Shown here in pieces: positions 50 to 26,719 of a DNA stretch of 42,842 bases. The stretch is from a virus, in the UHGV virus genome UHGV-0138423; one strand, given 5' to 3'. Each line of letters starts with the position of its first letter. The stretch's first letter is position 1. The notes beneath the pieces are model-generated. The model worked only from the letters and a program-made list of their open reading frames with translations. It searched no databases and was not told the origin of the DNA. Both the position numbers and the translations under genes were made by a program.

Positions 50-706
50 TTATTGCAATTGCACAAGAGTCAGTTCTCCCCCAAAGACAGCACCGGTATC
101 AATATAATGCAGGTTGCCAATATCCACGCGATGGCGCAAAGGTGTATGACCAAACCAGAAATGATCAGCACCTGCAATTCCCTGCCCTTTTTGGCGTTCA
201 CCTAATCGCGAGCGGCTCCACAAGACCTGATGCAAATCGACGTCCTTTTGCCATTCATAGACATCATCTGGATAATCGGCATGAGCAATAACATGTTTGC
301 CGGTGCGACTGTGTAATTCAAGAATAAAGGGCAAATGCTGACATTTTTCCAGCGCCGTTTTCGCTTGTTTCTGTTGATTATCTGCCAGCGCAATAAACCA
401 GTCGCCGCCATTTATCAACCATAAAGACATCTGCCGGGATGCCAGCGCATCCATCGCCATCTGTTCATGATTGCCTCTTACCGCACGAACCCAATGTTGT
501 TCCAGTAACTGCAGGCAACGTAAACTTTGCGGCCCACGATCGATAACGTCTCCCACTGAGATAAGTAAATCTCGCCACGGATCAAAACGACAATGCCATA
601 ATTTGCGGCGCAACTGCTCAAGACAACCGTGTATATCGCCTGAAAGCCAGATATGTCGCCATTGATGACCCGCAATTCTCTGATAAACGGGCGCAGGCTG
701 TTTCAT
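50..706 (-). CDS. prpA: Serine/threonine protein phosphatase 1 (host chromosomal gene)
   Basis: Translation begins MKQPAPVYQRIAGHQWRHIWLSGDIHGCLEQ and carries metallophosphatase motifs (GDxxDRG, GNHE); matches E. coli PrpA as I recall it. ATG at 704-706 preferred over the TTG at 707-709 used by the ORF track. Confidence 0.85.
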   Translation of the reverse strand: MKQPAPVYQRIAGHQWRHIWLSGDIHGCLEQLRRKLWHCRFDPWRDLLISVGDVIDRGPQSLRCLQLLEQHWVRAVRGNHEQMAMDALASRQMSLWLINGGDWFIALADNQQKQAKTALEKCQHLPFILELHSRTGKHVIAHADYPDDVYEWQKDVDLHQVLWSRSRLGERQKGQGIAGADHFWFGHTPLRHRVDIGNLHYIDTGAVFGGELTLVQLQ

Positions 707-840
707 CAATATTTTCCTCCCGCGCTAAAGATCACATAATCTTAACAAGAATGTTAAAAAACGCTGGACTCAGACAGTAGAGTGTGTGTTATGGTTGACT
801 ATAAAGTCAGCGAAGGGAATGCTTCTGGCTTTTAACAGAT

Positions 841-4666: not shown

Positions 4667-5862
4667 GACTCCACCGTTATAACGATATTTTCCGGGGTAC
4701 AGGACGCAGATTCGTTATATCTGATATCAATGTTTGATGACGACAAAGCCCCCGGGGATTTCCCAATCGTCAGTTCCTGAATATCGTAATAGCGAGCATT
4801 CCCGCCACTCACCACGCCAAGATTCGCCGGTGAGTAAATGCGACTTAAAAGGACCGAATCACCAATCGTCAGACTATTGATATAGTCGGAAATAGCCTGC
4901 TGGATCTGCTGCCCTATCTGTGAGGTATAACCCGTAAAAACTTTTAATTTAATCCGGGCATAAACAGGCACATCACTGGAACGCGAGAATTTGATTACAT
5001 GGGGATTGCCGTATTTATCCGGAACCGTAACGGATGTTGTACCGTGAGTGGCTGTCCCCTGGCCTTTATTCCCTCTGATAGCCTGAGCAATATCCGTCAC
5101 ATCACCGCCATCCACAATTACAGCAACAGAGTGTGGCGGTAACCCGTTACCGTCCTCCGAACCAGTATCGTTTTCATAGAGTTTGTGGCGGGTTACACCG
5201 GTAACATTAGAAACAGCACCATCCAGTGCTTCAAATGGGGTTATTGATGGCAACGCAACACTTTGCGACTGGCGGATACGTAACTCCGCGTCAGTTTCTG
5301 CCGGAGTGCCCACGGTAGCCGCAGCAGGATTAGTTACCGAAACCCAGCCACGGGTTGGCGTATTTATTTCAGTGATAGTTCCAGCCAGCGCCGCCACTGC
5401 ACCACTGACGGAACATGTTGCAGTCACCATCACTGTACCATCCACGCCGACCACCACTGAAGCAGGCAAACGCCATATCACATTATTACTGTCTTTCACG
5501 CTGCCATTAATGATGGTTGTTCCGGCAGTTCCTGTAAGAAGCAAATCAACCGTAGAATTCGTCGCGCCTTTACGTGAAATACCATTTATTTTCACGTTAC
5601 TGGTCAGTGCAGCCCCATAGCCGGTTGCCGGTGAAAAACAGTTGTAGACAGTTATCGCCGTATTATTGGCATCATGAATCGCCAGCGCCATCAGAGCCAC
5701 CATCTGGCCGTCTTTGCTGTCCGGTTCGAGGTAGGCATCACTGCCATAAATCTGCTGAAAATAGCTAATCAGGGTGCTGAGTATCGTCTGATAATCAGGC
5801 GCACTGATCCCCTCCGCGGTTACCTTTGCAGATAAACCGAGAGAATCAAGGTTCAGAGCCAT
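4663..5862 (-). CDS. Baseplate J-like protein
   Basis: 399 aa; size, position after the W-like gene and overall character fit the baseplate J (gp47/gp6-like) family. Confidence 0.7.
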   Translation of the reverse strand: MALNLDSLGLSAKVTAEGISAPDYQTILSTLISYFQQIYGSDAYLEPDSKDGQMVALMALAIHDANNTAITVYNCFSPATGYGAALTSNVKINGISRKGATNSTVDLLLTGTAGTTIINGSVKDSNNVIWRLPASVVVGVDGTVMVTATCSVSGAVAALAGTITEINTPTRGWVSVTNPAAATVGTPAETDAELRIRQSQSVALPSITPFEALDGAVSNVTGVTRHKLYENDTGSEDGNGLPPHSVAVIVDGGDVTDIAQAIRGNKGQGTATHGTTSVTVPDKYGNPHVIKFSRSSDVPVYARIKLKVFTGYTSQIGQQIQQAISDYINSLTIGDSVLLSRIYSPANLGVVSGGNARYYDIQELTIGKSPGALSSSNIDIRYNESASCTPENIVITVES

Positions 5863-6215
5863 TACGCCTCCGATGTAACAGTCGTTATTCCATAAAGAGT
5901 GTCGATTTCAGCGGAAAACATGACACGTCGGGTCGTGGTATCCACCGTCGTATTGAAAGAGAGGATTGATTTAACGCCCCGCGTTTCGAGGATGCGCTTA
6001 CGGATCGCCAGGTTGTAGGTTTCCGGCTTCTGCTTACCGAGCACAGACTGGATCCACGGAGTCCCTTCGGTGGTGTCGAGAAACCATTGCCCATACCACA
6101 ATTCGAATCGCGTTTTTACCGCCTGCGCCACGGCCTCCGGTGAGTTAATCAGCCAGGTGTCATCACCGCTGCCAAAGGTGTAATCTCCATCGGCGTCTTC
6201 ACGTCTGTATCGCAT
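5862..6215 (-). CDS. Baseplate wedge protein W (gp25-like)
   Basis: 117 aa ORF between the V-like and J-like genes; N-terminal region typical of the GPW/gp25 family. Confidence 0.65.
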   Translation of the reverse strand: MRYRREDADGDYTFGSGDDTWLINSPEAVAQAVKTRFELWYGQWFLDTTEGTPWIQSVLGKQKPETYNLAIRKRILETRGVKSILSFNTTVDTTTRRVMFSAEIDTLYGITTVTSEA

Positions 6216-6967
6216 CAGTTTACTCCGTCGGTATTGCTTCCACCACGCTGAACACCACCATGAGTGTGCGTATCATCGATTGGCTTGCCGTTAGCCTTCA
6301 CGCTACCCAAAAACTCAACAGCACCAGTGATTTTTGAAGCCACACCAGAAACAACAGATCCCACCATGCCACCCATCCAGGTTAACAGGCCATGAATGGT
6401 TACTTTCTCAGAAAAATCAGCCAGAGGGGCAACCACATCAAGACCACCCGGAGCGACAATTTTAATTTTCCGGGTATCAGGATTAAGCTCAAAATAGGTG
6501 CTGCCGTCGTCACTACGCAACTGTGTGGCACTGGTATTAATACCGCTAATCTTCCTTGCCTGCGACTGGGGACCGACAATACAAAAAGCATCCGATAAAT
6601 CATGCATTCTGTCATCGACCGGCTCCTGTATCCCGCCACTCTGCCACCAGAAATCAATACAACGATCGGCAAAAATCACCAAACATTCATCACCGGCTTT
6701 AACTGGGAACGTTAGCGTGCATCCTCCGCCGCGCGGGAATACCACTGGCACATCCACCAGCAATGGGTAATTTTGGGTAATGCGGTTGCCGTCATTATCC
6801 TTTTCAACCGAACGGATAGCAGGCTGCACAACTGCCGTCACCGCATCTGGATCGAATGACTGAATAATGCCAGGCAAGGCGACACGGATCTGGTTCTTTG
6901 TTGTTTCCCGTTCAGATTTGAATGTTTCGGCAAGGTCGCCGCTGCGGGTCTGGTCAGATACTGCCAT
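6215..6967 (-). CDS. Baseplate central spike / assembly protein V-like
   Basis: 250 aa with an N-terminal OB-like region and a Gly/His-rich C-terminal tip (..DDTHTHGGVQRGGSNTDG..); position upstream of W and J as in Mu gp45 / P2 gpV. Confidence 0.65.
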   Translation of the reverse strand: MAVSDQTRSGDLAETFKSERETTKNQIRVALPGIIQSFDPDAVTAVVQPAIRSVEKDNDGNRITQNYPLLVDVPVVFPRGGGCTLTFPVKAGDECLVIFADRCIDFWWQSGGIQEPVDDRMHDLSDAFCIVGPQSQARKISGINTSATQLRSDDGSTYFELNPDTRKIKIVAPGGLDVVAPLADFSEKVTIHGLLTWMGGMVGSVVSGVASKITGAVEFLGSVKANGKPIDDTHTHGGVQRGGSNTDGVN

Positions 6968-6985
6968 TTAGTAGGCTCCAGAAAG

Positions 6986-7010
6986 CAAAAAACCCGCCGG
7001 GTGGCGGGTT
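6986..7010 (-). terminator. Rho-independent terminator after the secreted-protein genes
   Basis: Minus-strand RNA AACCCGCC-ACCC-GGCGGGUU followed by UUUUUUG; lies between the stop at 7034 and the V-like start at 6967. Confidence 0.6.
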
Positions 7011-7033
7011 AAATGGTGTCTGCGATAAGGTTC

Positions 7034-7399
7034 CTACATTTTCGTGCAGGTCTTATAGATGGCATCACCACGGGGGCGATCATCTGCGTCTAAAATCTGA
7101 ACTATTTGTTTAATAGTTTTTGAATCGTTAGGGAAAACAGTTGTGTAGTGGTTATGCATCCCACCATTCGCCCCCCATACATCAAATGTGATGACCACCG
7201 AATCCCCCAAGTCACCGTACGGATACTGGTCAGTGGCTGAATTTTCTGTTAGCTGATCGTTCATTATGACTGCCTGTTTACTCATTGAGGCATTCACATA
7301 CATTACAAATTTATCGTCACCGCACTTAAAGCGCAAAACAGGCGCTGCAAGCACGCTATACGACATAAAAACAAGAGATAAGAGAGCTAAGCGCTTCAT
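7034..7399 (-). CDS. Small secreted protein (moron), function unknown
   Basis: 121 aa; N-terminus MKRLALLSLVFMSYSVLA is a typical Sec signal peptide; mature part has Cys near both ends; AT-richer than the flanking tail genes; followed by its own terminator. Confidence 0.6.
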   Translation of the reverse strand: MKRLALLSLVFMSYSVLAAPVLRFKCGDDKFVMYVNASMSKQAVIMNDQLTENSATDQYPYGDLGDSVVITFDVWGANGGMHNHYTTVFPNDSKTIKQIVQILDADDRPRGDAIYKTCTKM

Positions 7400-7411
7400 T
7401 AATCCCCCCTG

Positions 7412-7756
7412 TTAATTAACTTTTTTGCATGGGAAAGACCCGATGATTCTAGGCGCGTCCATGCTGTTCTGCAGAAGCTGGACGTTCAGGAAACGCGTTT
7501 CGGTGCCCGGTCGATGGATATACTCGAACCCATAATTGTGGCCATCTTTGGCAGGCATCAGCCCCATTTTGATCTGCATGCCTGTACCGTCTTTACCCAA
7601 CATTTTTACTTTTTGGGACGTTACTGTTTCGCCATTGATTTTAAATAATGAGTCAGGGATCGCATCCATACGAAAGTTGCCGCATTGCATCGTTATGGTG
7701 TTTGCACTTACACCAACAGACACTAACGCCAGCAATGAAAATATCCATCGTTTCAT
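7412..7756 (-). CDS. Small secreted protein (moron), function unknown
   Basis: Start taken at the internal ATG (MKRWIFSLLALVSVGVSA signal peptide) preceded by GAGAGGA; the ORF-track start is an upstream GTG. Mature protein has N- and C-proximal Cys like its neighbour. Confidence 0.55.
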   Translation of the reverse strand: MKRWIFSLLALVSVGVSANTITMQCGNFRMDAIPDSLFKINGETVTSQKVKMLGKDGTGMQIKMGLMPAKDGHNYGFEYIHRPGTETRFLNVQLLQNSMDAPRIIGSFPCKKVN

Positions 7757-7758
7757 TT

Positions 7759-8829
7759 CTATAATCCTCTCTGCAAAGCAGTGCTGGATGGCATATCCTG
7801 CGCACCGCGCGCTTCGCACATCATATCCATGTACCAGGCCTGGCCCCTTGTGTCGCCAGTGTACATAATCCCGCGCACAATATAAACGCCATCAGTTGCG
7901 ATGCTGGCCGTCATTTGTTTGGACACGGGCAGGGTAACGTTAGAGTTGCCATCTATTGTTTCGTCAAAGTAACGTCCCGCTGCTTTAGCAATATCGTCAT
8001 TCGGTAAAGCTGTTTTATAGATAGAAGCCTGATCCAGTTGAATTAGCCCGTTAACCCGGATGTTCGGATTAATAAGCGCGCGGACGTTTACGCCGTTACC
8101 GATAGTCTGCTGCGGCATGCCAATAAGCCCGGTAGCGCTGTTGAGCACAATCGCTTCATGAACATATTCGTTATTCGCCACCATCTGGCGCTGACCGTCC
8201 ACGAATTGCCATGTTGCGCCACATTGCCCGGCTACGTTATCCATTAGATGCCGCGTCATGCCAAAGAGTACCCGCCCCCGGGGGAATACAGTAGCAGGCA
8301 TTTCAGGCGTCAGGCCTTCGGTCGCGCCTTTGGCTTCGAAGTCTTTCATCAGCGCACGGTTTACATCAGCGACCGTGTAACCGGCAGCCAGCGTCTGTGA
8401 GGTTATACTGGTGGCAAAAGCCAGATCAGTATCTGCTGCCTGAATCAGGACGTAGGAATCAACCGGACTGTCTTTTCCTGTGACCGAGTAGCGAATTTCA
8501 CCGCTGAAAATCAGTCCGTAGTTGCGGCCATCACTCTGACCCACGTCCGCCGCGTCAACTTCCCGCACGGTCCCGACGTCGCTTGCCGACACCTCCGGCG
8601 CGATACCGTCGTAACCGGCAATCAGACGCACTTTCGAAAACTCCTGCCCGGTGATTCGGTTCACAGTATCTGCCGAGAGGTTATAAATTTTGATAGTCCC
8701 TACCCGGGACGCGCTGCTGATGTTGAACCAGTCGATCGTAAAGGTGACTTTAAAATCACTTAGCTCAATTCCCTGACCGTTCCCGTCCACAAGCTGCAGC
8801 TCGAAATGTCTCATCCAGTTCTGTGACAT
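7759..8829 (-). CDS. Baseplate hub-like tail protein
   Basis: 356 aa ORF between the small tail proteins and the spike gene; assignment by position in a contractile-tail baseplate cluster. Confidence 0.45.
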   Translation of the reverse strand: MSQNWMRHFELQLVDGNGQGIELSDFKVTFTIDWFNISSASRVGTIKIYNLSADTVNRITGQEFSKVRLIAGYDGIAPEVSASDVGTVREVDAADVGQSDGRNYGLIFSGEIRYSVTGKDSPVDSYVLIQAADTDLAFATSITSQTLAAGYTVADVNRALMKDFEAKGATEGLTPEMPATVFPRGRVLFGMTRHLMDNVAGQCGATWQFVDGQRQMVANNEYVHEAIVLNSATGLIGMPQQTIGNGVNVRALINPNIRVNGLIQLDQASIYKTALPNDDIAKAAGRYFDETIDGNSNVTLPVSKQMTASIATDGVYIVRGIMYTGDTRGQAWYMDMMCEARGAQDMPSSTALQRGL

Positions 8830-8831
8830 GC

Positions 8832-9134
8832 TTACTCCGTTGATACCAGTAAATGGCTGCGACCGCCCAGGTCAGTTTTTGTGGGGTAATCCTGTGTGTT
8901 GTCATCACAGACCACCACCAGCTTAAAACCAAGCCCCATACAGGCGTACTGCGCCAGCAGGTCAGCACCAGTGACGAGAGGAATACCGGAGATTACCGGC
9001 TCCCCTCTGTCGTTCTGCAGGTCCATAATCCAGTATAGATCGCGCCATATGATGCTAATCCGCCAGGTGACACCACCCAGGACGATGCTGAACTGCTGGT
9101 TGTCCGCTGTCAGCGGAATTTCCTGAATTGTCAT
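8832..9134 (-). CDS. Small tail/baseplate protein
   Basis: 100 aa ORF tightly packed within the tail operon; no family recognised. Confidence 0.4.
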   Translation of the reverse strand: MTIQEIPLTADNQQFSIVLGGVTWRISIIWRDLYWIMDLQNDRGEPVISGIPLVTGADLLAQYACMGLGFKLVVVCDDNTQDYPTKTDLGGRSHLLVSTE

Positions 9135-9721
9135 TAGCCGCCCCCCAGTAATGACGCCACGTTACCCGTGATGCTTTTCAGCAGTGAAGTATCTGGAGGT
9201 TTTGTGGTTTTGTTGCCGCTGTTCTGTACCGCCGACGTGCTGGCCCCTTCCTTCATGTTGGTTTTATCCGCGACGGTAATCTGCTGTGTCCGGGAGATAA
9301 TGACCTCCCTCAGGGTGAGGACGGCGGACAGGACGTTTTCGGTTGTCTTGTCCGTCGTCACTTCCAGCGCCCGGATCAACATGTTGCTGTACAGCCGTTT
9401 ACCGGTTACCACATCGAAGGGGATACGGCTTTCCTGCAGATCCAGTAGCTCCTGATACGTCTGCTGAGGACTCAGGCCGAGCAGGCTGGTAGCCGTCAGG
9501 TTACTGGCAAAATCCAGCAATGCGCCGCCACCGGCGAAACCAACCTCCATCACCACTTCTGACGGTTTTTTATAGGCATGATCAGCGACAGCGGCCCCGA
9601 CCTCTACCGGATGCTCTGTTATTTCAAGCATATCTGTATGCTTCTCTGAAATAACAACACTGGGAACAATCATTCCTATTTTTCTGCTCTGCTGATGAAA
9701 AAGTGTAGAGAGAATATCCAC
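9134..9721 (-). CDS. Tail protein downstream of the tape measure gene
   Basis: 195 aa ORF abutting the tape measure stop; position equals PBSX XkdP / Mu gp43-type proteins. Confidence 0.4.
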   Translation of the reverse strand: MDILSTLFHQQSRKIGMIVPSVVISEKHTDMLEITEHPVEVGAAVADHAYKKPSEVVMEVGFAGGGALLDFASNLTATSLLGLSPQQTYQELLDLQESRIPFDVVTGKRLYSNMLIRALEVTTDKTTENVLSAVLTLREVIISRTQQITVADKTNMKEGASTSAVQNSGNKTTKPPDTSLLKSITGNVASLLGGG

Positions 9722-11706
9722 TAACCCACCCTCACCTGATTACTTCGCATGACCTGAGCATTTGCAGACTGTTGCCGACGTGCAACCTCATTACCGACAG
9801 CGTGCGGATCTCCGCCACCGTAAATATGGTAGGTATTTTGCTGGTTAACCTCTGTCACTTTGCCACTAATTCCCGCCACGGCAGCCTTATTAATCAGCTC
9901 TCGAGAATAGATATTTCTTCCATTCTCATGCTGGATAATGCTGCTCATCAATGCTGACATGGTTTGCGGATCGCTCATATTCAGGGCAGCCCGGGGATCC
10001 ACTCCCAGTCGTTGCGATACAGCCCTGATATACGCGGTTGTGTTGTTATTATCAGACGCAGGTGCCCAGGTAGAGATAATTTTCTCCACACTGTTTATTC
10101 CCCGTCCGGCGTACAGCATTAACTGACGAGCAAGAGCCCGTAATCCATCAAAAGCGGTTTCAAATCTGGCAAATCGCCCGCCCGGTCGTTCAAGAGAAGC
10201 CCCCGCCTGACCAGCAAAATTAAGGTTTCCCGGATTGTTATTCCGTTCTCCTCGCTTCGTAGCCTGTGCATGTTGTTCCGGCTCAGCACCTGGAATATCT
10301 GACTGAATATTTGCGCCTTTTACGGTATGAGGATTACGACCAAAATCGGTATCAATGCCAAGCCAGCGCAATGAATCTCCAATATTTTGTTTCGTGTAAT
10401 CCCAGGATGACTTCGCACTGGCACCAATATTTTCGCGATCGGAGTACAAATAAGCAGCATAAGCCATCCAGCCTTTTAACCATGGCGGTACCGGCAAACC
10501 AGATATTTTCCCGAAAGCCCCCAGAACCCTGGATACCCAGACACCCGCGATGAATGTACCGAGGATTTCCAGTGCATTTTGCCAGCCGCCAACACCATCT
10601 TTTAGTTCCAGAAGGTGATCACGAAGCCAGGTGATCGCATCCTTCGCTTTATCTATTGCCGGTTGCCATTTTTCCCAGTCGATAAGACTGTTACCGCCTT
10701 CTTTCCATGTTTTGTAGTCTTCCCACAAGAGACCGAGAGCCACGATCAGACCGGTAATCAGCCCTATAGGTGACATCCAGAAAGTAGAGTTAAGTATCCG
10801 CATGGCGACAACCAGACCGCCGATAACCTCTATCAGGGTTTTCGTTTCGGCATCCAGTTTCCCCCACCACTCGATGATATCTCCGACACCATCGACTATC
10901 CGAAATGCTACCCGCCCGACTATCTCACCCAGCCAGAGGATCCCCTTTATGACCTTTGTGATGGTGACTTCAATTTTGGGAAAATTTTCAATTATCTTTT
11001 TGCGCAGGTTATCAATCTGCCCCGCCAGTCCGTCCGCAAGATTCGATCCGATTTTGTCCCGCGCCATCCCGGCCATTTCACCGAGCGATTTCAGCGAGGT
11101 CATAAACCGGTTTGACGATAAGGCAGCCTGATCGGCATTAAATCCGATCGCTTTCACCATTTCTGAATACTGAGCGCTGAACTGCCCCACTCCGCGACGC
11201 ATAGCCATCAGGGTATTTTCGTCAATGCCCAGCATCTGCGCATACTGGTTAGCCCGGTAATACGGCATGCTGCTGAGTTTCTGCCCAACGCCCGTAAAGA
11301 TAGCAGCCATGTCACGCATGTTACCGCGGGCATCACGGGTCTGTACGCCCAGGCGATTCAGAAAGCCTTCTGCTCCGGGATTGTTACGAATAAACCGGGA
11401 GAGGCTTTCCAGAGAAGATCGCGCAGCGTCCACACTGCCGCCAACCTGCGAAACCGCATAGCCAATAGACTGAATTCCCTGGACCGTCGCGCCGGTGCGC
11501 TGTGACGCCCAGTAAAGATTATCCAGGCCGGAGGCGATCTTAGCCGTGAAGGCCACCACGGACAGCGCAGCTCCTTCAACAGCCAGCCCCATTTTGATGA
11601 CATTTGCAGTTGTACCGGCGAGGACAGAACCGAACTTTTTCGCTCCTGCATCATCCACACTGAAGCCAAGCGAGACGAGGAAATCTTTAATAGTTTCAGC
11701 GTTCAT
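9721..11706 (-). CDS. Tail tape measure protein with an extra C-terminal globular domain
   Basis: 661 aa from the ATG (MNAETIKDF...) preceded by GGAGAGAGG; Ala/Gly-rich helical N-terminal part and hydrophobic central segments typical of tape measure proteins; C-terminal region contains an NNNPGNL motif. Confidence 0.75.
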   Translation of the reverse strand: MNAETIKDFLVSLGFSVDDAGAKKFGSVLAGTTANVIKMGLAVEGAALSVVAFTAKIASGLDNLYWASQRTGATVQGIQSIGYAVSQVGGSVDAARSSLESLSRFIRNNPGAEGFLNRLGVQTRDARGNMRDMAAIFTGVGQKLSSMPYYRANQYAQMLGIDENTLMAMRRGVGQFSAQYSEMVKAIGFNADQAALSSNRFMTSLKSLGEMAGMARDKIGSNLADGLAGQIDNLRKKIIENFPKIEVTITKVIKGILWLGEIVGRVAFRIVDGVGDIIEWWGKLDAETKTLIEVIGGLVVAMRILNSTFWMSPIGLITGLIVALGLLWEDYKTWKEGGNSLIDWEKWQPAIDKAKDAITWLRDHLLELKDGVGGWQNALEILGTFIAGVWVSRVLGAFGKISGLPVPPWLKGWMAYAAYLYSDRENIGASAKSSWDYTKQNIGDSLRWLGIDTDFGRNPHTVKGANIQSDIPGAEPEQHAQATKRGERNNNPGNLNFAGQAGASLERPGGRFARFETAFDGLRALARQLMLYAGRGINSVEKIISTWAPASDNNNTTAYIRAVSQRLGVDPRAALNMSDPQTMSALMSSIIQHENGRNIYSRELINKAAVAGISGKVTEVNQQNTYHIYGGGDPHAVGNEVARRQQSANAQVMRSNQVRVG

Positions 11707-11883
11707 TATCCTCTCTCCATTTCTCAATGCGCCGCTGGTTATCCGCTTTTACCGCCAGATGGTCATTCAAGAGAGCAATGTCATACAAATCGACAGAGCC
11801 ATCTTTAAGTGCTGTATAGGGAATTAACCCGGCGTCAACCGGATTGAGAAGGTAGGACAGCCCGTCCGGCAGGCTGTTAAACG

Positions 11884-23447: not shown

Positions 23448-23727
23448 CACCCGCAACAGCCACTTTGATATCTTCCTGGGTTCTCTGTGACTCCAGTGCG
23501 ATCTGCTGTTTTGCATGCTGGTTAGCCTCTATAACTGTATTGATGATTTGCAGAGATTGCAGGACGTTACTGGTAATGGCTGTTGCAGATTCAGCGTTTC
23601 GTACAGCCTCATCAGCACGCTCCTTTTCGTGCTGATATTTGCTGTAGTAATGCCCGGCAGACCAGATAAAAGAACCGATGACGGTAACAAAGAAGGCAAC
23701 AATAACCAGCTTATATCTCAGCTTCAT
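23335..23727 (-). CDS. Inner-membrane spanin Rz-like
   Basis: 130 aa; N-terminal transmembrane segment (LVIVAFFVTVIGSFIW) followed by a charged helical periplasmic domain; immediately downstream of the endolysin. Confidence 0.6.
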   Translation of the reverse strand: MKLRYKLVIVAFFVTVIGSFIWSAGHYYSKYQHEKERADEAVRNAESATAITSNVLQSLQIINTVIEANQHAKQQIALESQRTQEDIKVAVAGDDCAVRIVPSGAVKRLHEYANGIRVGAGRSVTSQSDG

Positions 23728-24187
23728 TTACCACCCCACCAGCTTCTTTAAATCGGGAAATCAGGTCACCGATTCTATGTTCATACTGACCGTAACCTGC
23801 ACCAGGTAACGACGCCCAGATATTGCTGCAACGGTCGATTGCCTGACGAATATCGCCGCGGTCAATCATCGGTAAAGCGCCACGCTCTTTAATCTGCTGC
23901 AGCGCTACAGCATCCTGGCTTTCTGGAGAAAAATCTTTCAGACCAAGTTGCTTGCGGTAGGCATCCCACCAGCGTGAAAGAAGCTGGTAACGTCCGGCGG
24001 CTGTTGATTTGAGTTTCGGATTTAGCGTGACAAGTTTGCGGGGGTGATCGGAGTAATCAGTGAACAGTTCGCCACCGACAATAACATCATAACCGTGATT
24101 TCTGGTTTTCTGCCGTCCGTTATCTGTTCCTTCTGACCATGCCACCATATCAAGGAAAGCTTTACGCTGGGAATTAAGTGTCTGCAT
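23711..24187 (-). CDS. R: Endolysin, lambda R-type lytic transglycosylase
   Basis: 158 aa; ..NQRKAFLDMVAWSEGTDNGRQKTRNHGYDVIVGGELFTDYSDHPRKLVTLNPKLKSTAAGRYQLL.. is near-identical to lambda R as I recall it. Confidence 0.85.
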   Translation of the reverse strand: MQTLNSQRKAFLDMVAWSEGTDNGRQKTRNHGYDVIVGGELFTDYSDHPRKLVTLNPKLKSTAAGRYQLLSRWWDAYRKQLGLKDFSPESQDAVALQQIKERGALPMIDRGDIRQAIDRCSNIWASLPGAGYGQYEHRIGDLISRFKEAGGVVNEAEI

Positions 24188-25851: not shown

Positions 25852-25881
25852 AATATAGCCCCGAATAACAGATTGAGTCAA
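25852..25881 (-). promoter_or_regulatory. pR'-like late promoter overlapping the Q stop codon
   Basis: Minus strand: -35 TTGACT (plus 25876-25881), 18 nt spacer, -10 TATATT (plus 25852-25857); same position relative to Q as lambda pR'. Confidence 0.45.
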
Positions 25882-26432
25882 CAGACGGTTTTTGAATCCC
25901 CGGAAGAGAATGCATCACGCATCGGCAGATAGAGCATAAACTCTGCCATTTTCAACCACGCATCTATGCGATTACGGCACGTGGCGTAACACCACTCAGG
26001 GTGTGAATCATTCAGCAATTCAGCCATTTTTCGCTTAGTCATCCCCCTCCCTTCATATCGTTGCCGGAGGATACAAATCAATCCTGGGTGTTCTGCCAGC
26101 ACTTCACTAATCACACGATCAATGCATAACGCCTCTGCATCAGTACAATGCACCAGCCAGCTTTTTTGCTTGCCGTTGATCATATCCCGTAAAAAAGCCT
26201 CAAGTTCAGGTTTGTCCAGACCTGCTTTTTTCATCCTCCGGAGCGCCTCGTTAATTGCCGTTTTTGTCAGCTTTTTAGAGGTCAGCAACTGGTTAAACAT
26301 ATTTCCCGTCTTACCGCCGCCAATATACGACCAGCGCCCCCACATGCGCAGTTTTCCCTGAATCCAGACACTTTCCAGCGTGGTGAGACGAAGGTGTTCC
26401 CCGCTTTTGCCTGTATTTGTTGGGTAAATCAT
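25878..26432 (-). CDS. Late-gene antitermination protein Q
   Basis: 184 aa from the ATG overlapping the upstream stop (ATGA); position between nin-like genes and the pR'/tR' unit; Cys/His-containing C-terminal part consistent with Q-family proteins. Confidence 0.6.
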   Translation of the reverse strand: MIYPTNTGKSGEHLRLTTLESVWIQGKLRMWGRWSYIGGGKTGNMFNQLLTSKKLTKTAINEALRRMKKAGLDKPELEAFLRDMINGKQKSWLVHCTDAEALCIDRVISEVLAEHPGLICILRQRYEGRGMTKRKMAELLNDSHPEWCYATCRNRIDAWLKMAEFMLYLPMRDAFSSGDSKTVC

Positions 26433-26719
26433 AAATAACCTTCCTTTCTCCAGATTTCTTGTGTGCGAAAAACACCTTCTGCATGCATCAGGCGTAATTC
26501 TTCTTTGGTGTAATCGCTGGTTTTTACCCGCCCGTCGATTAAATCGTGGCATGAGCTACAGGCAATCGCTGCCTGCATATCGTGTGGTTTTGTCGCTGTT
26601 CCGCACGTCCCCGCCAGCCTGTAATGCGCCAGCACAGAAGTTTCGGGATTGTGGTTGCAGTAGCCAGGAATTCTGACGGTGCACATCTGCCCCCGCGCCG
26701 CTTTACGTAAATCCACCAT
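26429..26719 (-). CDS. nin-region protein, DUF1364 (YbcO-like)
   Basis: 96 aa with paired Cys motifs (..CTVRIPGYCNH...CSSCHDLID..); typical gene immediately upstream of Q in lambdoid prophages. Confidence 0.6.
   Translation of the reverse strand: MVDLRKAARGQMCTVRIPGYCNHNPETSVLAHYRLAGTCGTATKPHDMQAAIACSSCHDLIDGRVKTSDYTKEELRLMHAEGVFRTQEIWRKEGYL

Follow-up and report, generated by a model that had tools for sequence, protein, structure and literature searches.

An exported-protein gene fixed next to the baseplate hub and a terminator-bounded cargo slot in a contractile-tailed Escherichia coli prophage

We analysed the junction between the baseplate hub and central spike genes in UHGV virus genome UHGV-0138423, a stretch of 42,842 nucleotides (nt) referred to here as the window, where two small open reading frames (ORFs), ORF B and ORF A, separate the two tail genes. 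The layout of the lineage at this point is fixed, running from the hub through ORF B and an optional variable cargo with a conserved terminator to the spike, and the junction is a hotspot for variable accessory genes, with conserved flanks around unrelated cargo. We regard it as very probable that ORF B is a backbone gene, that ORF A is cargo of the hotspot, that the terminator belongs to the slot, and that the two genes have no promoter of their own. The functional reading that we favour, tentatively and by analogy, is that ORF A and ORF B may encode periplasmic binding proteins that obstruct penetration of the envelope by incoming phages. The features of the window used below, including the two ORFs and their lengths in amino acids (aa), are as follows.

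9721-11727, minus strand: tape measure protein
9134-9721, minus strand: Dit-like protein
8832-9134, minus strand: plug
7759-8829, minus strand: baseplate hub (phrog_196, E 1.4e-89); its conserved 3′ half is the left flank of the slot
7412-7756, minus strand: ORF B, 114 aa, PHROG 3443, conserved backbone gene
7034-7399, minus strand: ORF A, 121 aa, rare accessory gene of the cargo slot
6985-7010, minus strand: intrinsic terminator, right boundary of the cargo slot
6215-6967, minus strand: central spike, with an Apex motif and, at the N-terminus, a PF18352 domain (E 9e-45); the conserved 5′ part of this gene is the right flank of the slot
25878-26552, minus strand: Q-type antiterminator homolog (PF06530/DUF1133)

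The two ORFs that the initial annotation had placed between a hub and a spike gene were thus confirmed in length, position and strand, as were both flanking genes. ORF B follows the hub almost without interruption: its ATG lies 2 nt after the hub stop codon, and its Shine-Dalgarno sequence falls within the hub gene. A longer GTG-initiated form (to 7819) overlaps the hub; the homologs all begin at the methionine of the MKR... N-terminus. We compared loci in a species set of 37 loci from 32 species, and in 30-odd of them (all those with the hub end on the contig) a B homolog starts at most a few nt away from the hub stop and in many cases overlaps it. The B homolog is also the first gene after the hub in all eight E. 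coli prophages compared, and it stands directly 3′ of the hub in phages 606R2, Mulock and ST11-OXA48phi15.1. The homolog in phage SEN34 (SEN34_20, L001 6548-6781) has 77 aa as annotated and lies 110 nt from the hub. Signal peptide and initial strands are missing from it, so that either the gene is truncated or its start was called wrongly. Five species loci (L027, L030, L031, L032 and L043) have neither cargo nor terminator, and there the gap from ORF B to the spike is 0-1 nt.

Members of the ORF B family were found in about 5% of complete E. coli genomes and also in Klebsiella, Salmonella, Yersinia, Serratia and Photorhabdus. By blastn, ORF B was detected in 279 E. coli genomes, compared with 351 carrying the backbone, and where blastn misses it, more divergent B2-type genes occupy the slot. 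Mean pairwise identity over the C-terminal two-thirds of ORF B is 0.74, that of the hub being 0.70-0.74, and this part of ORF B tracks the tail-module phylogeny. Acinetobacter AbTJ and Edwardsiella ZHS have the same set of hub, plug and spike with no B, the hub adjoining the spike; in Burkholderia BgManors32, too, B is missing, and the hub-spike junction is occupied by an unrelated gene on the reverse strand. Distant relatives without the gene, together with its lineage-wide presence elsewhere, point to ORF B having been added once at the junction and then fixed in the enterobacterial branch. A comparison with related prophages, put forward in the initial annotation as a check on an insertion, therefore has two sides: the junction is indeed empty in AbTJ and ZHS, and the enterobacterial relatives keep ORF B and vary the cargo.

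ORF B matched PHROG 3443 (E 7.9e-51, residues 1-114 of a 115-position profile), a family of unknown function whose membership is thus mechanistically uninformative; B2-type paralogs and a lipoprotein fusion described below match it as well. Its homologs form 332 clusters, all from Enterobacterales, none of which has a Pfam domain or an informative name; RefSeq labels one E. coli homolog ‘STY1065/STY2022 family phage-derived protein’. A search of 1.84 billion representative proteins with the ORF B profile gave only 44 matches, which indicates a small family confined to this clade. Three long repeat proteins from the representative search (P0137, P0172 and P0176) were discarded, since their matches were spurious ones to low-complexity or repeat sequence.

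The right boundary of the slot is equally regular. A strong Rho-independent terminator before the spike, reported in the initial annotation, was recovered at 6985-7010, with a stem at 7010-6991 on the minus strand of 8 bp (six G-C pairs), a 4-nt loop and a T6 run (AACCCGCC-ACCC-GGCGGGTT followed by T6). It folds at -20.7 kcal/mol over 56 nt (z = -3.5) and is the only such site in the window. The annotation had counted it as part of the inserted unit. This assignment did not survive comparison, as the hairpin and the ribosome-binding region of the spike (ACCCGCCACCCGGCGGGTTTTTTGCTTTCTGGAGCCTACTAAATG) are near-identical across E. coli prophages with entirely different cargo. Among the species loci, a hairpin-T terminator precedes the spike in most of those bearing cargo and is absent where there is no cargo. 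A similar terminator follows ORF A in Yersinia, in E. coli L052/L053, in L055 and in Serratia fonticola; in L054 the spike begins 6 nt after ORF A with no terminator between them. Because the same hairpin follows unrelated cargo and is missing after ORF A in L054, we assign the terminator to the slot, not to ORF A.

The cargo carried in the slot by other prophages includes a YafO-toxin-like pair (Pfam E 4e-17), HEPN-like two-gene modules, DUF2335 and DUF4282 membrane proteins, and other transmembrane proteins. In some cases an AT-rich spacer of 60-330 nt with sigma-70-like sites lies ahead of the cargo. PADLOC found no known defence system in the cargo of other prophages, returning one weak PycTM-like match only. 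In one E. coli locus (L056 630-3293, NZ_CP182371.1), an ISVsa5-family IS4 transposase lies inside the hub-spike slot and the spike is truncated. Accessory and defence genes are likewise reported to vary in the hotspots of P2 and P4 prophages (PMC9122126). The likeness to those hotspots extends to the flanks, which here are the hub 3′ half with ORF B on one side and the terminator with the spike 5′ end on the other. Unlike the P2 and P4 hotspots, the present one belongs to another phage lineage and to another site, inside a baseplate operon.

ORF A, which starts 12 nt after ORF B, behaves as a rare occupant of this slot. Its DNA was found in five of 5426 E. coli genomes, and its protein family comprises 15 clusters from Citrobacter, Yersinia, Serratia, E. 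coli and a Symbiopectobacterium. Across the 37 species loci, no locus matched ORF A by blastn, compared with 22-28 for the hub 3′ half, 11-19 for ORF B and up to 33 for the spike 5′ part. ORF A gave no significant PHROG match and falls outside PHROG 3443. In all seven contexts recovered it lies 3-13 nt behind another gene for an exported protein. The preceding gene is B1- or B2-type in the window, in Yersinia L004/L042, in L054 and in L055, and in E. coli L052/L053 it encodes a 296-aa lipoprotein with a C-terminal B2 domain. Serratia fonticola departs from this pattern in two ways: the preceding gene encodes an unrelated 113-aa signal-peptide protein (phrog_13007), and ORF A with a terminator sits at the plug-hub junction, not at the hub-spike junction.

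The initial annotation had read the two genes and the terminator as a moron, in an unusual place and transcribed on its own. Morons have been defined by extra DNA relative to related phages, a guanine-plus-cytosine (GC) content different from the surroundings, a promoter and terminator of their own, and expression from the repressed prophage (PMC3594210). Extra DNA describes ORF A; it describes ORF B only against distant relatives, the gene being always present within the lineage. Both ORFs differ modestly in GC content from the surrounding genes (ORF A 0.434 and ORF B 0.449, compared with 0.529 for the hub, 0.501 for the spike and 0.489 for the window). The lower GC content noted in the annotation is therefore real with respect to hub and spike, and it is less distinctive than it appeared, as the tail fibre (0.460) and the wedge (0.477) are low too.

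As for a promoter belonging to ORF A or ORF B, consensus scans found none: the coding strand over 5500-9500 contained no sigma-70-like site, with the limit that a weak or atypical promoter could escape such a scan. Over the last 50 hub codons the third position is no better conserved (0.56-0.62) than in the rest of the hub (0.48-0.59), which gives no sign of an embedded regulatory element. A promoter buried in the hub 3′ end was accordingly rejected, with neither a consensus site nor excess synonymous-site conservation there. The gaps of 2 and 12 nt, taken with the lack of a detectable promoter, indicate that ORF A and ORF B are probably genes of the late operon; the expression from the lysogen assumed in the annotation is unsupported.

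We consider it decidedly unlikely that a single unit made up of ORF B, ORF A and the terminator was inserted, with its own promoter, and is expressed in the lysogen as a fitness or exclusion factor. Such a history would account for a terminator 3′ of ORF A, for GC slightly below that of the flanks, for distant relatives without any gene at the junction and for ORF A with a terminator at the plug-hub junction of Serratia fonticola, but it conflicts with the lineage-wide conservation of ORF B in position against the rarity of ORF A, with a terminator that is common to unrelated cargo and absent in the ORF A-bearing L054, and with intergenic gaps that leave no room for a promoter, next to a hub 3′ end without synonymous-site constraint. 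What stands of the two-gene insertion is ORF A, rare and placed at a junction that is empty in AbTJ and ZHS; the claim of one unit fails, ORF B being lineage-wide backbone.

The location is also less unusual than had been claimed, since HK97 gp15, a superinfection-exclusion gene and the first moron described, lies inside a tail operon too (PMC3594210). As with HK97 gp15, small envelope-targeted proteins are here encoded within a tail gene block, and ORF A fits the description of ‘more DNA’. The HK97 protein is found in the inner membrane and is expressed from the prophage, with its own promoter and terminator (PMC3594210). By contrast, ORF A and ORF B are predicted to be soluble and exported, no promoter was detectable for them, and ORF B is fixed in its lineage. 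Prophage superinfection-exclusion genes in tail operons also include T5 Llp and the Cor-type lipoproteins.

The protein sequences point to export. ORF B is predicted to be a Sec-exported protein of about 95 mature residues, with an MKR N-terminus, a hydrophobic core, a VSA|NT site and no lipobox (signal peptide approximately residues 1-18). ORF A has the same arrangement with a VLA|AP site (signal peptide approximately residues 1-19; no lipobox). The Sec signal peptides of the initial annotation were thus borne out as a heuristic pattern in both ORFs and in their families, being kept in 71 of 74 ORF B homologs and in 11 of 11 full-length ORF A homologs, with N-terminal sequences that are themselves variable. 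The annotated cysteines near the ends of the mature parts were likewise confirmed. Each mature protein has exactly two, one near each end (C25/C110 in ORF B, C26/C118 in ORF A), and they are invariant or nearly so in the respective family. The ORF A family has two further invariant motifs, the His-rich WGANGGMHNHYTT at residues 75-87 and DADxRPRGD, which contains RGD, at residues 104-112.

Both proteins were modelled with AlphaFold2 as eight-stranded up-and-down beta-barrels, with predicted local distance difference test (pLDDT) scores of 83.8 and 79.2. In the ORF B model C25 lies in strand E21-25 and C110 in E103-113; in the ORF A model C26 lies in strand E21-26 and C118 in E114-120. We infer from these models that both proteins would be oxidised in the periplasm to a disulfide joining strands beta1 and beta8, and predicted export together with a likely disulfide would place them in the periplasm.

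The two proteins have in common their size, the export signal, a cysteine near each mature end and eight predicted strands in the same order. Descent from a common ancestor was nevertheless rejected as a working assumption. BLASTP of ORF A against ORF B gave E 5.0, and hhalign gave 83% with signal peptides included, 0.3% (E 0.19) on mature sequences only and 0.2% against a widened ORF B profile. The collapse on mature sequences shows that the 83% came from the signal peptides, so that homology between ORF A and ORF B is not demonstrable. Searched against BFVD with Foldseek, the ORF A model had no match at E<=1e-3 and retrieved no B-family protein; ORF B had no match in the NCBIfam library, and matches of the two proteins to GMPPB_C, MTase_II, SRP54 and hydroxynitrile lyase were set aside as noise. 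Literature searches around SEN34 and STY1065 turned up no functional or proteomic data for the ORF A and ORF B genes.

One variant of the ORF B gene departs from the soluble form. In the E. coli metagenomic contigs L052/L053 (3107-3997), the ORF B slot holds a 296-aa protein with a lipobox (LLVSGC), in which an uncharacterised 190-aa N-terminal domain is joined to a C-terminal B2-type barrel; an ORF A homolog follows. Fusions resembling it were found in P0158 and P0174.

ORF B is universally present at its position in the lineage, a pattern that the initial annotation had associated with conserved virion components; the positional part of this holds, and the identification as a virion component does not follow from it. 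A baseplate component or assembly chaperone whose hydrophobic N-terminus stays uncleaved would explain why ORF B is strictly adjacent to and tightly packed with the hub gene, why it is as conserved as the structural proteins and why its C-terminal part follows the tail-module phylogeny. This reading is highly improbable in our view, given that signal-peptide features are kept through the family despite sequence variation, that a conserved cysteine pair suits an oxidising compartment, that ORF B is missing from relatives whose hub, plug and spike are of this kind, that a lipobox-bearing fusion version exists, and that multi-copy paralog arrays, described below, are unexpected of a stoichiometric structural protein.

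An architectural parallel is offered by the MliC/PliC lysozyme inhibitors (Pfam PF09864). Members of the MliC/PliC/ACP group are eight-stranded barrels with a conserved beta1-beta8 disulfide (PMC5507604). An eight-strand antiparallel barrel is also what was modelled for ORF A and ORF B, and the Sec-type N-termini without a lipobox (by heuristic pattern) are PliC-like. Pfam searches gave no MliC match for either protein even at E<=1. ORF A and ORF B therefore resemble the MliC/PliC/ACP group in architecture and are not members by sequence criteria.

A stricter proposal holds that the two proteins are lysozyme or peptidoglycan-hydrolase inhibitors proper, which protect the envelope by inhibiting a muramidase or lytic transglycosylase in the manner of MliC, PliC, ACP or PhiA. 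The targets could be animal c-type lysozyme, effectors of type VI secretion systems (T6SS) or tailocins, or a phage tail lysin. An exported eight-strand barrel of about 100 residues with a cysteine pair on its first and last strands agrees with this, as does the endolysin-like domain on the tape measure protein, and Neisseria ACP inhibits lysozyme without the SxSGAxY and YxxxTKG motifs (PMC5507604), so that the absence of both motifs here does not decide the matter by itself. Combined with the missing Pfam match and with a lack of covariation between ORF B and the type of tape measure lysin, it leaves strict hydrolase inhibition unlikely.

T4 Spackle offers a parallel in function. It is a small, disulfide-bonded periplasmic inhibitor of the tail lysozyme, built as an alpha-helical bundle (PMC7677548). 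ORF A and ORF B share with it small size, phage origin, a periplasmic signal (cleaved in Spackle) and a cysteine pair, the disulfide being inferred here, and in our proposal also the action on the tail penetration apparatus during lytic infection. They differ from it in that Spackle is helical and the product of an early gene, and the present proteins are modelled as beta-barrels, are encoded in the late baseplate operon and show no link to the tail lysin.

The roles established for phage proteins of the periplasm are those of spanin, antiholin, receptor blocker and inhibitor of the entry apparatus. In the mechanism that we tentatively prefer, obstruction of envelope penetration, ORF A and ORF B would be transcribed within the late tail operon, with Q antitermination reading through the terminator at 6985-7010 during late transcription. 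In lysogens the terminator would shield the spike and downstream tail genes from promoters of the cargo. The proteins would be secreted to the periplasm, oxidised there, and hinder the entry of contractile-tail phages by binding or inhibition, in a manner like that of the MliC, PliC, ACP and PhiA peptidoglycan-hydrolase inhibitors and T4 Spackle. The outcome would be superinfection exclusion during lytic growth, and possibly also from the prophage. Different paralogs would carry different specificities, which would account for tandem arrays in two species. We counted in favour of this mechanism the peptidoglycan hydrolase domain on the tail’s own tape measure protein and the Q homolog.

Several observations weigh against obstruction of entry by these proteins. 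Neither ORF A, ORF B nor the consensus of either family contains SxSGAxY or YxxxTKG, and neither protein has a characterised homolog in Pfam, NCBIfam, PADLOC, PDB sequences or BFVD. Disulfide formation and signal-peptide cleavage come from sequence and models only. Exclusion usually operates in the lysogen, and with no promoter found, expression there is unsupported; the strict conservation of a late-expressed periplasmic protein is left unexplained. The variable segment of ORF B is uncorrelated with the C-termini of the spike (r = -0.11) and of the tape measure protein (r = 0.06; Mantel tests), and ORF B subtype does not covary with tape measure lysin type. Whether the NNPGN-type tape measure domain is present does not depend on the subtype of ORF B, and the lysin type of the window occurs in Serratia fonticola in the absence of B. 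ORF B as an inhibitor of its own tape measure lysin was accordingly rated low, on the missing covariation and the null Mantel correlations.

Alternatively, the barrels could bind a small ligand such as a peptidoglycan fragment, a lipid or a nucleotide signal (compare avidin, lipocalin and Cap15) and tune late lysis timing or signalling. Likely late co-expression with the tail genes and the invariant His-rich GGMHNH motif of ORF A are compatible with this. We hold it to be very unlikely, since neither protein has a sequence relation to any ligand-binding family, a complete lysis cassette lies elsewhere in the window, and paralog arrays are better suited to specificity for protein targets.

The variable part of ORF B comprises roughly the first 30 residues of the mature chain, which have a mean identity of 0.60 and can be sorted into several types. 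Their divergence correlates only weakly with that of the adjacent hub (r = 0.23-0.31). The independent evolution of these 30 N-terminal residues from the tail module suggests diversification like that of immunity or exclusion genes.

Two species carry ORF B paralogs in tandem. Between hub and spike, Serratia aquatilis (L049 4458-9346, NZ_CP173186.1) has six full paralogs and one truncated one, with 31-44% identity to ORF B of the window and a 402-aa minus-strand ORF among them. Pseudescherichia vulneris (L020 15-2849, NZ_BBMZ01000043.1) has four paralogs after the hub, and between them the last 65-75 hub codons are repeated three times. The hub 3′ fragments between the paralogs point to repeated recombination at the conserved hub 3′ end, which would stack cassettes from different phages. 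Such a build-up of divergent paralogs is expected of binders that carry specificity, as in immunity or exclusion, and not of a stoichiometric structural part. The cassettes of hub 3′ end plus B in L020 are also reminiscent of orphan toxin-immunity arrays.

Orphan immunity genes accumulate beside polymorphic toxin loci, much as cassette accumulation is proposed here for ORF B at the hub 3′ end. A bolder form of the preferred reading, which we regard as doubtful, is that the ORF B family would be a new class of periplasmic immunity-like proteins directed against the penetration machinery of contractile injection systems, linked to the hub and diversifying by accumulation of cassettes; ORF A would be an analogous addition to it. 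The contractile targets would be phage tails, tailocins and possibly T6SS effectors.

Morons, exclusion proteins and prophage hotspots are kinds already known. New here are an exported barrel family hard-wired to the hub across Enterobacterales, a terminator-delimited cargo hotspot in a baseplate operon, and arrays of barrel-gene cassettes. If proteins of the ORF B type do block entry from the periplasm, this would be a widespread and previously undescribed exclusion mechanism, with a bearing on host range in phage therapy and on competition between prophages. The hub-spike junction is a hotspot for new accessory and defence genes that is easily located by its conserved flanks and terminator. 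Whatever the function, the region also shows that a signal-peptide gene within a structural operon is not necessarily a recent moron. We see the result as a useful lead and not as a surprise of principle.

The window as a whole is an E. coli prophage with lambda-like regulation and a contractile tail, of the SEN34/Brunovirus-like type. Its 3 kb from 6000 to 9000 are 100% identical to the chromosome of E. coli C25, and 351 of 5426 complete E. coli genomes carry related sequence, in every case on the chromosome. Judged by the flanks alone, the sequenced phage nearest to the window at the junction is the Brunovirus SEN34 of Salmonella, which has been described as a myovirus whose regulation is lambda-like (PMC5261728); further relatives are vB_EcoM-606R2-type coliphages and Klebsiella phages such as Mulock. 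The regulatory genes of the window include the Q-antiterminator homolog, CI/Cro-like helix-turn-helix proteins and an integrase. The complete lysis cassette, with an S-type holin, a lambda-R-like endolysin at 23711-24187 and Rz/Rz1, lies away from the hub-spike junction.

Along the minus strand, the tail genes run from tape measure through Dit-like protein, plug, hub, ORF B, ORF A and the hairpin with its T-run to the spike, followed on the same strand by the sheath initiator, a J-like protein, the wedge and the fibre. The endolysin-like domain of the tape measure protein occupies approximately residues 490-625, in the C-terminal 209 residues (9721-10350), and includes an RNNNPGN motif. This C-terminus is homologous to PDB 9vvp_L Gp29 (E 1.2e-20) and 7q47_A Endolysin (E 1e-13); a Pfam scan did not pick up the domain. 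In some relatives the tape measure protein carries an SLT-type domain in its place.

Two further regions were noted. At the end of the prophage, 3′ of the tail fibre gene, an ORF for a calcineurin-like phosphoesterase (50-709, minus strand) accompanies a low-GC stretch (0.32-0.36 at 751-1200), and the region 50-1200 is probably another accessory region. A second site of small insertions, besides the hub-spike slot, lies between the spike and the sheath initiator; it is missing in the window, where the two genes overlap at 6215. SEN34 (L001 5088-5225) and an E. coli relative carry a transmembrane ORF of some 45 aa there; a hairpin-T terminator stands just upstream of this ORF in L052 (5161-5392).

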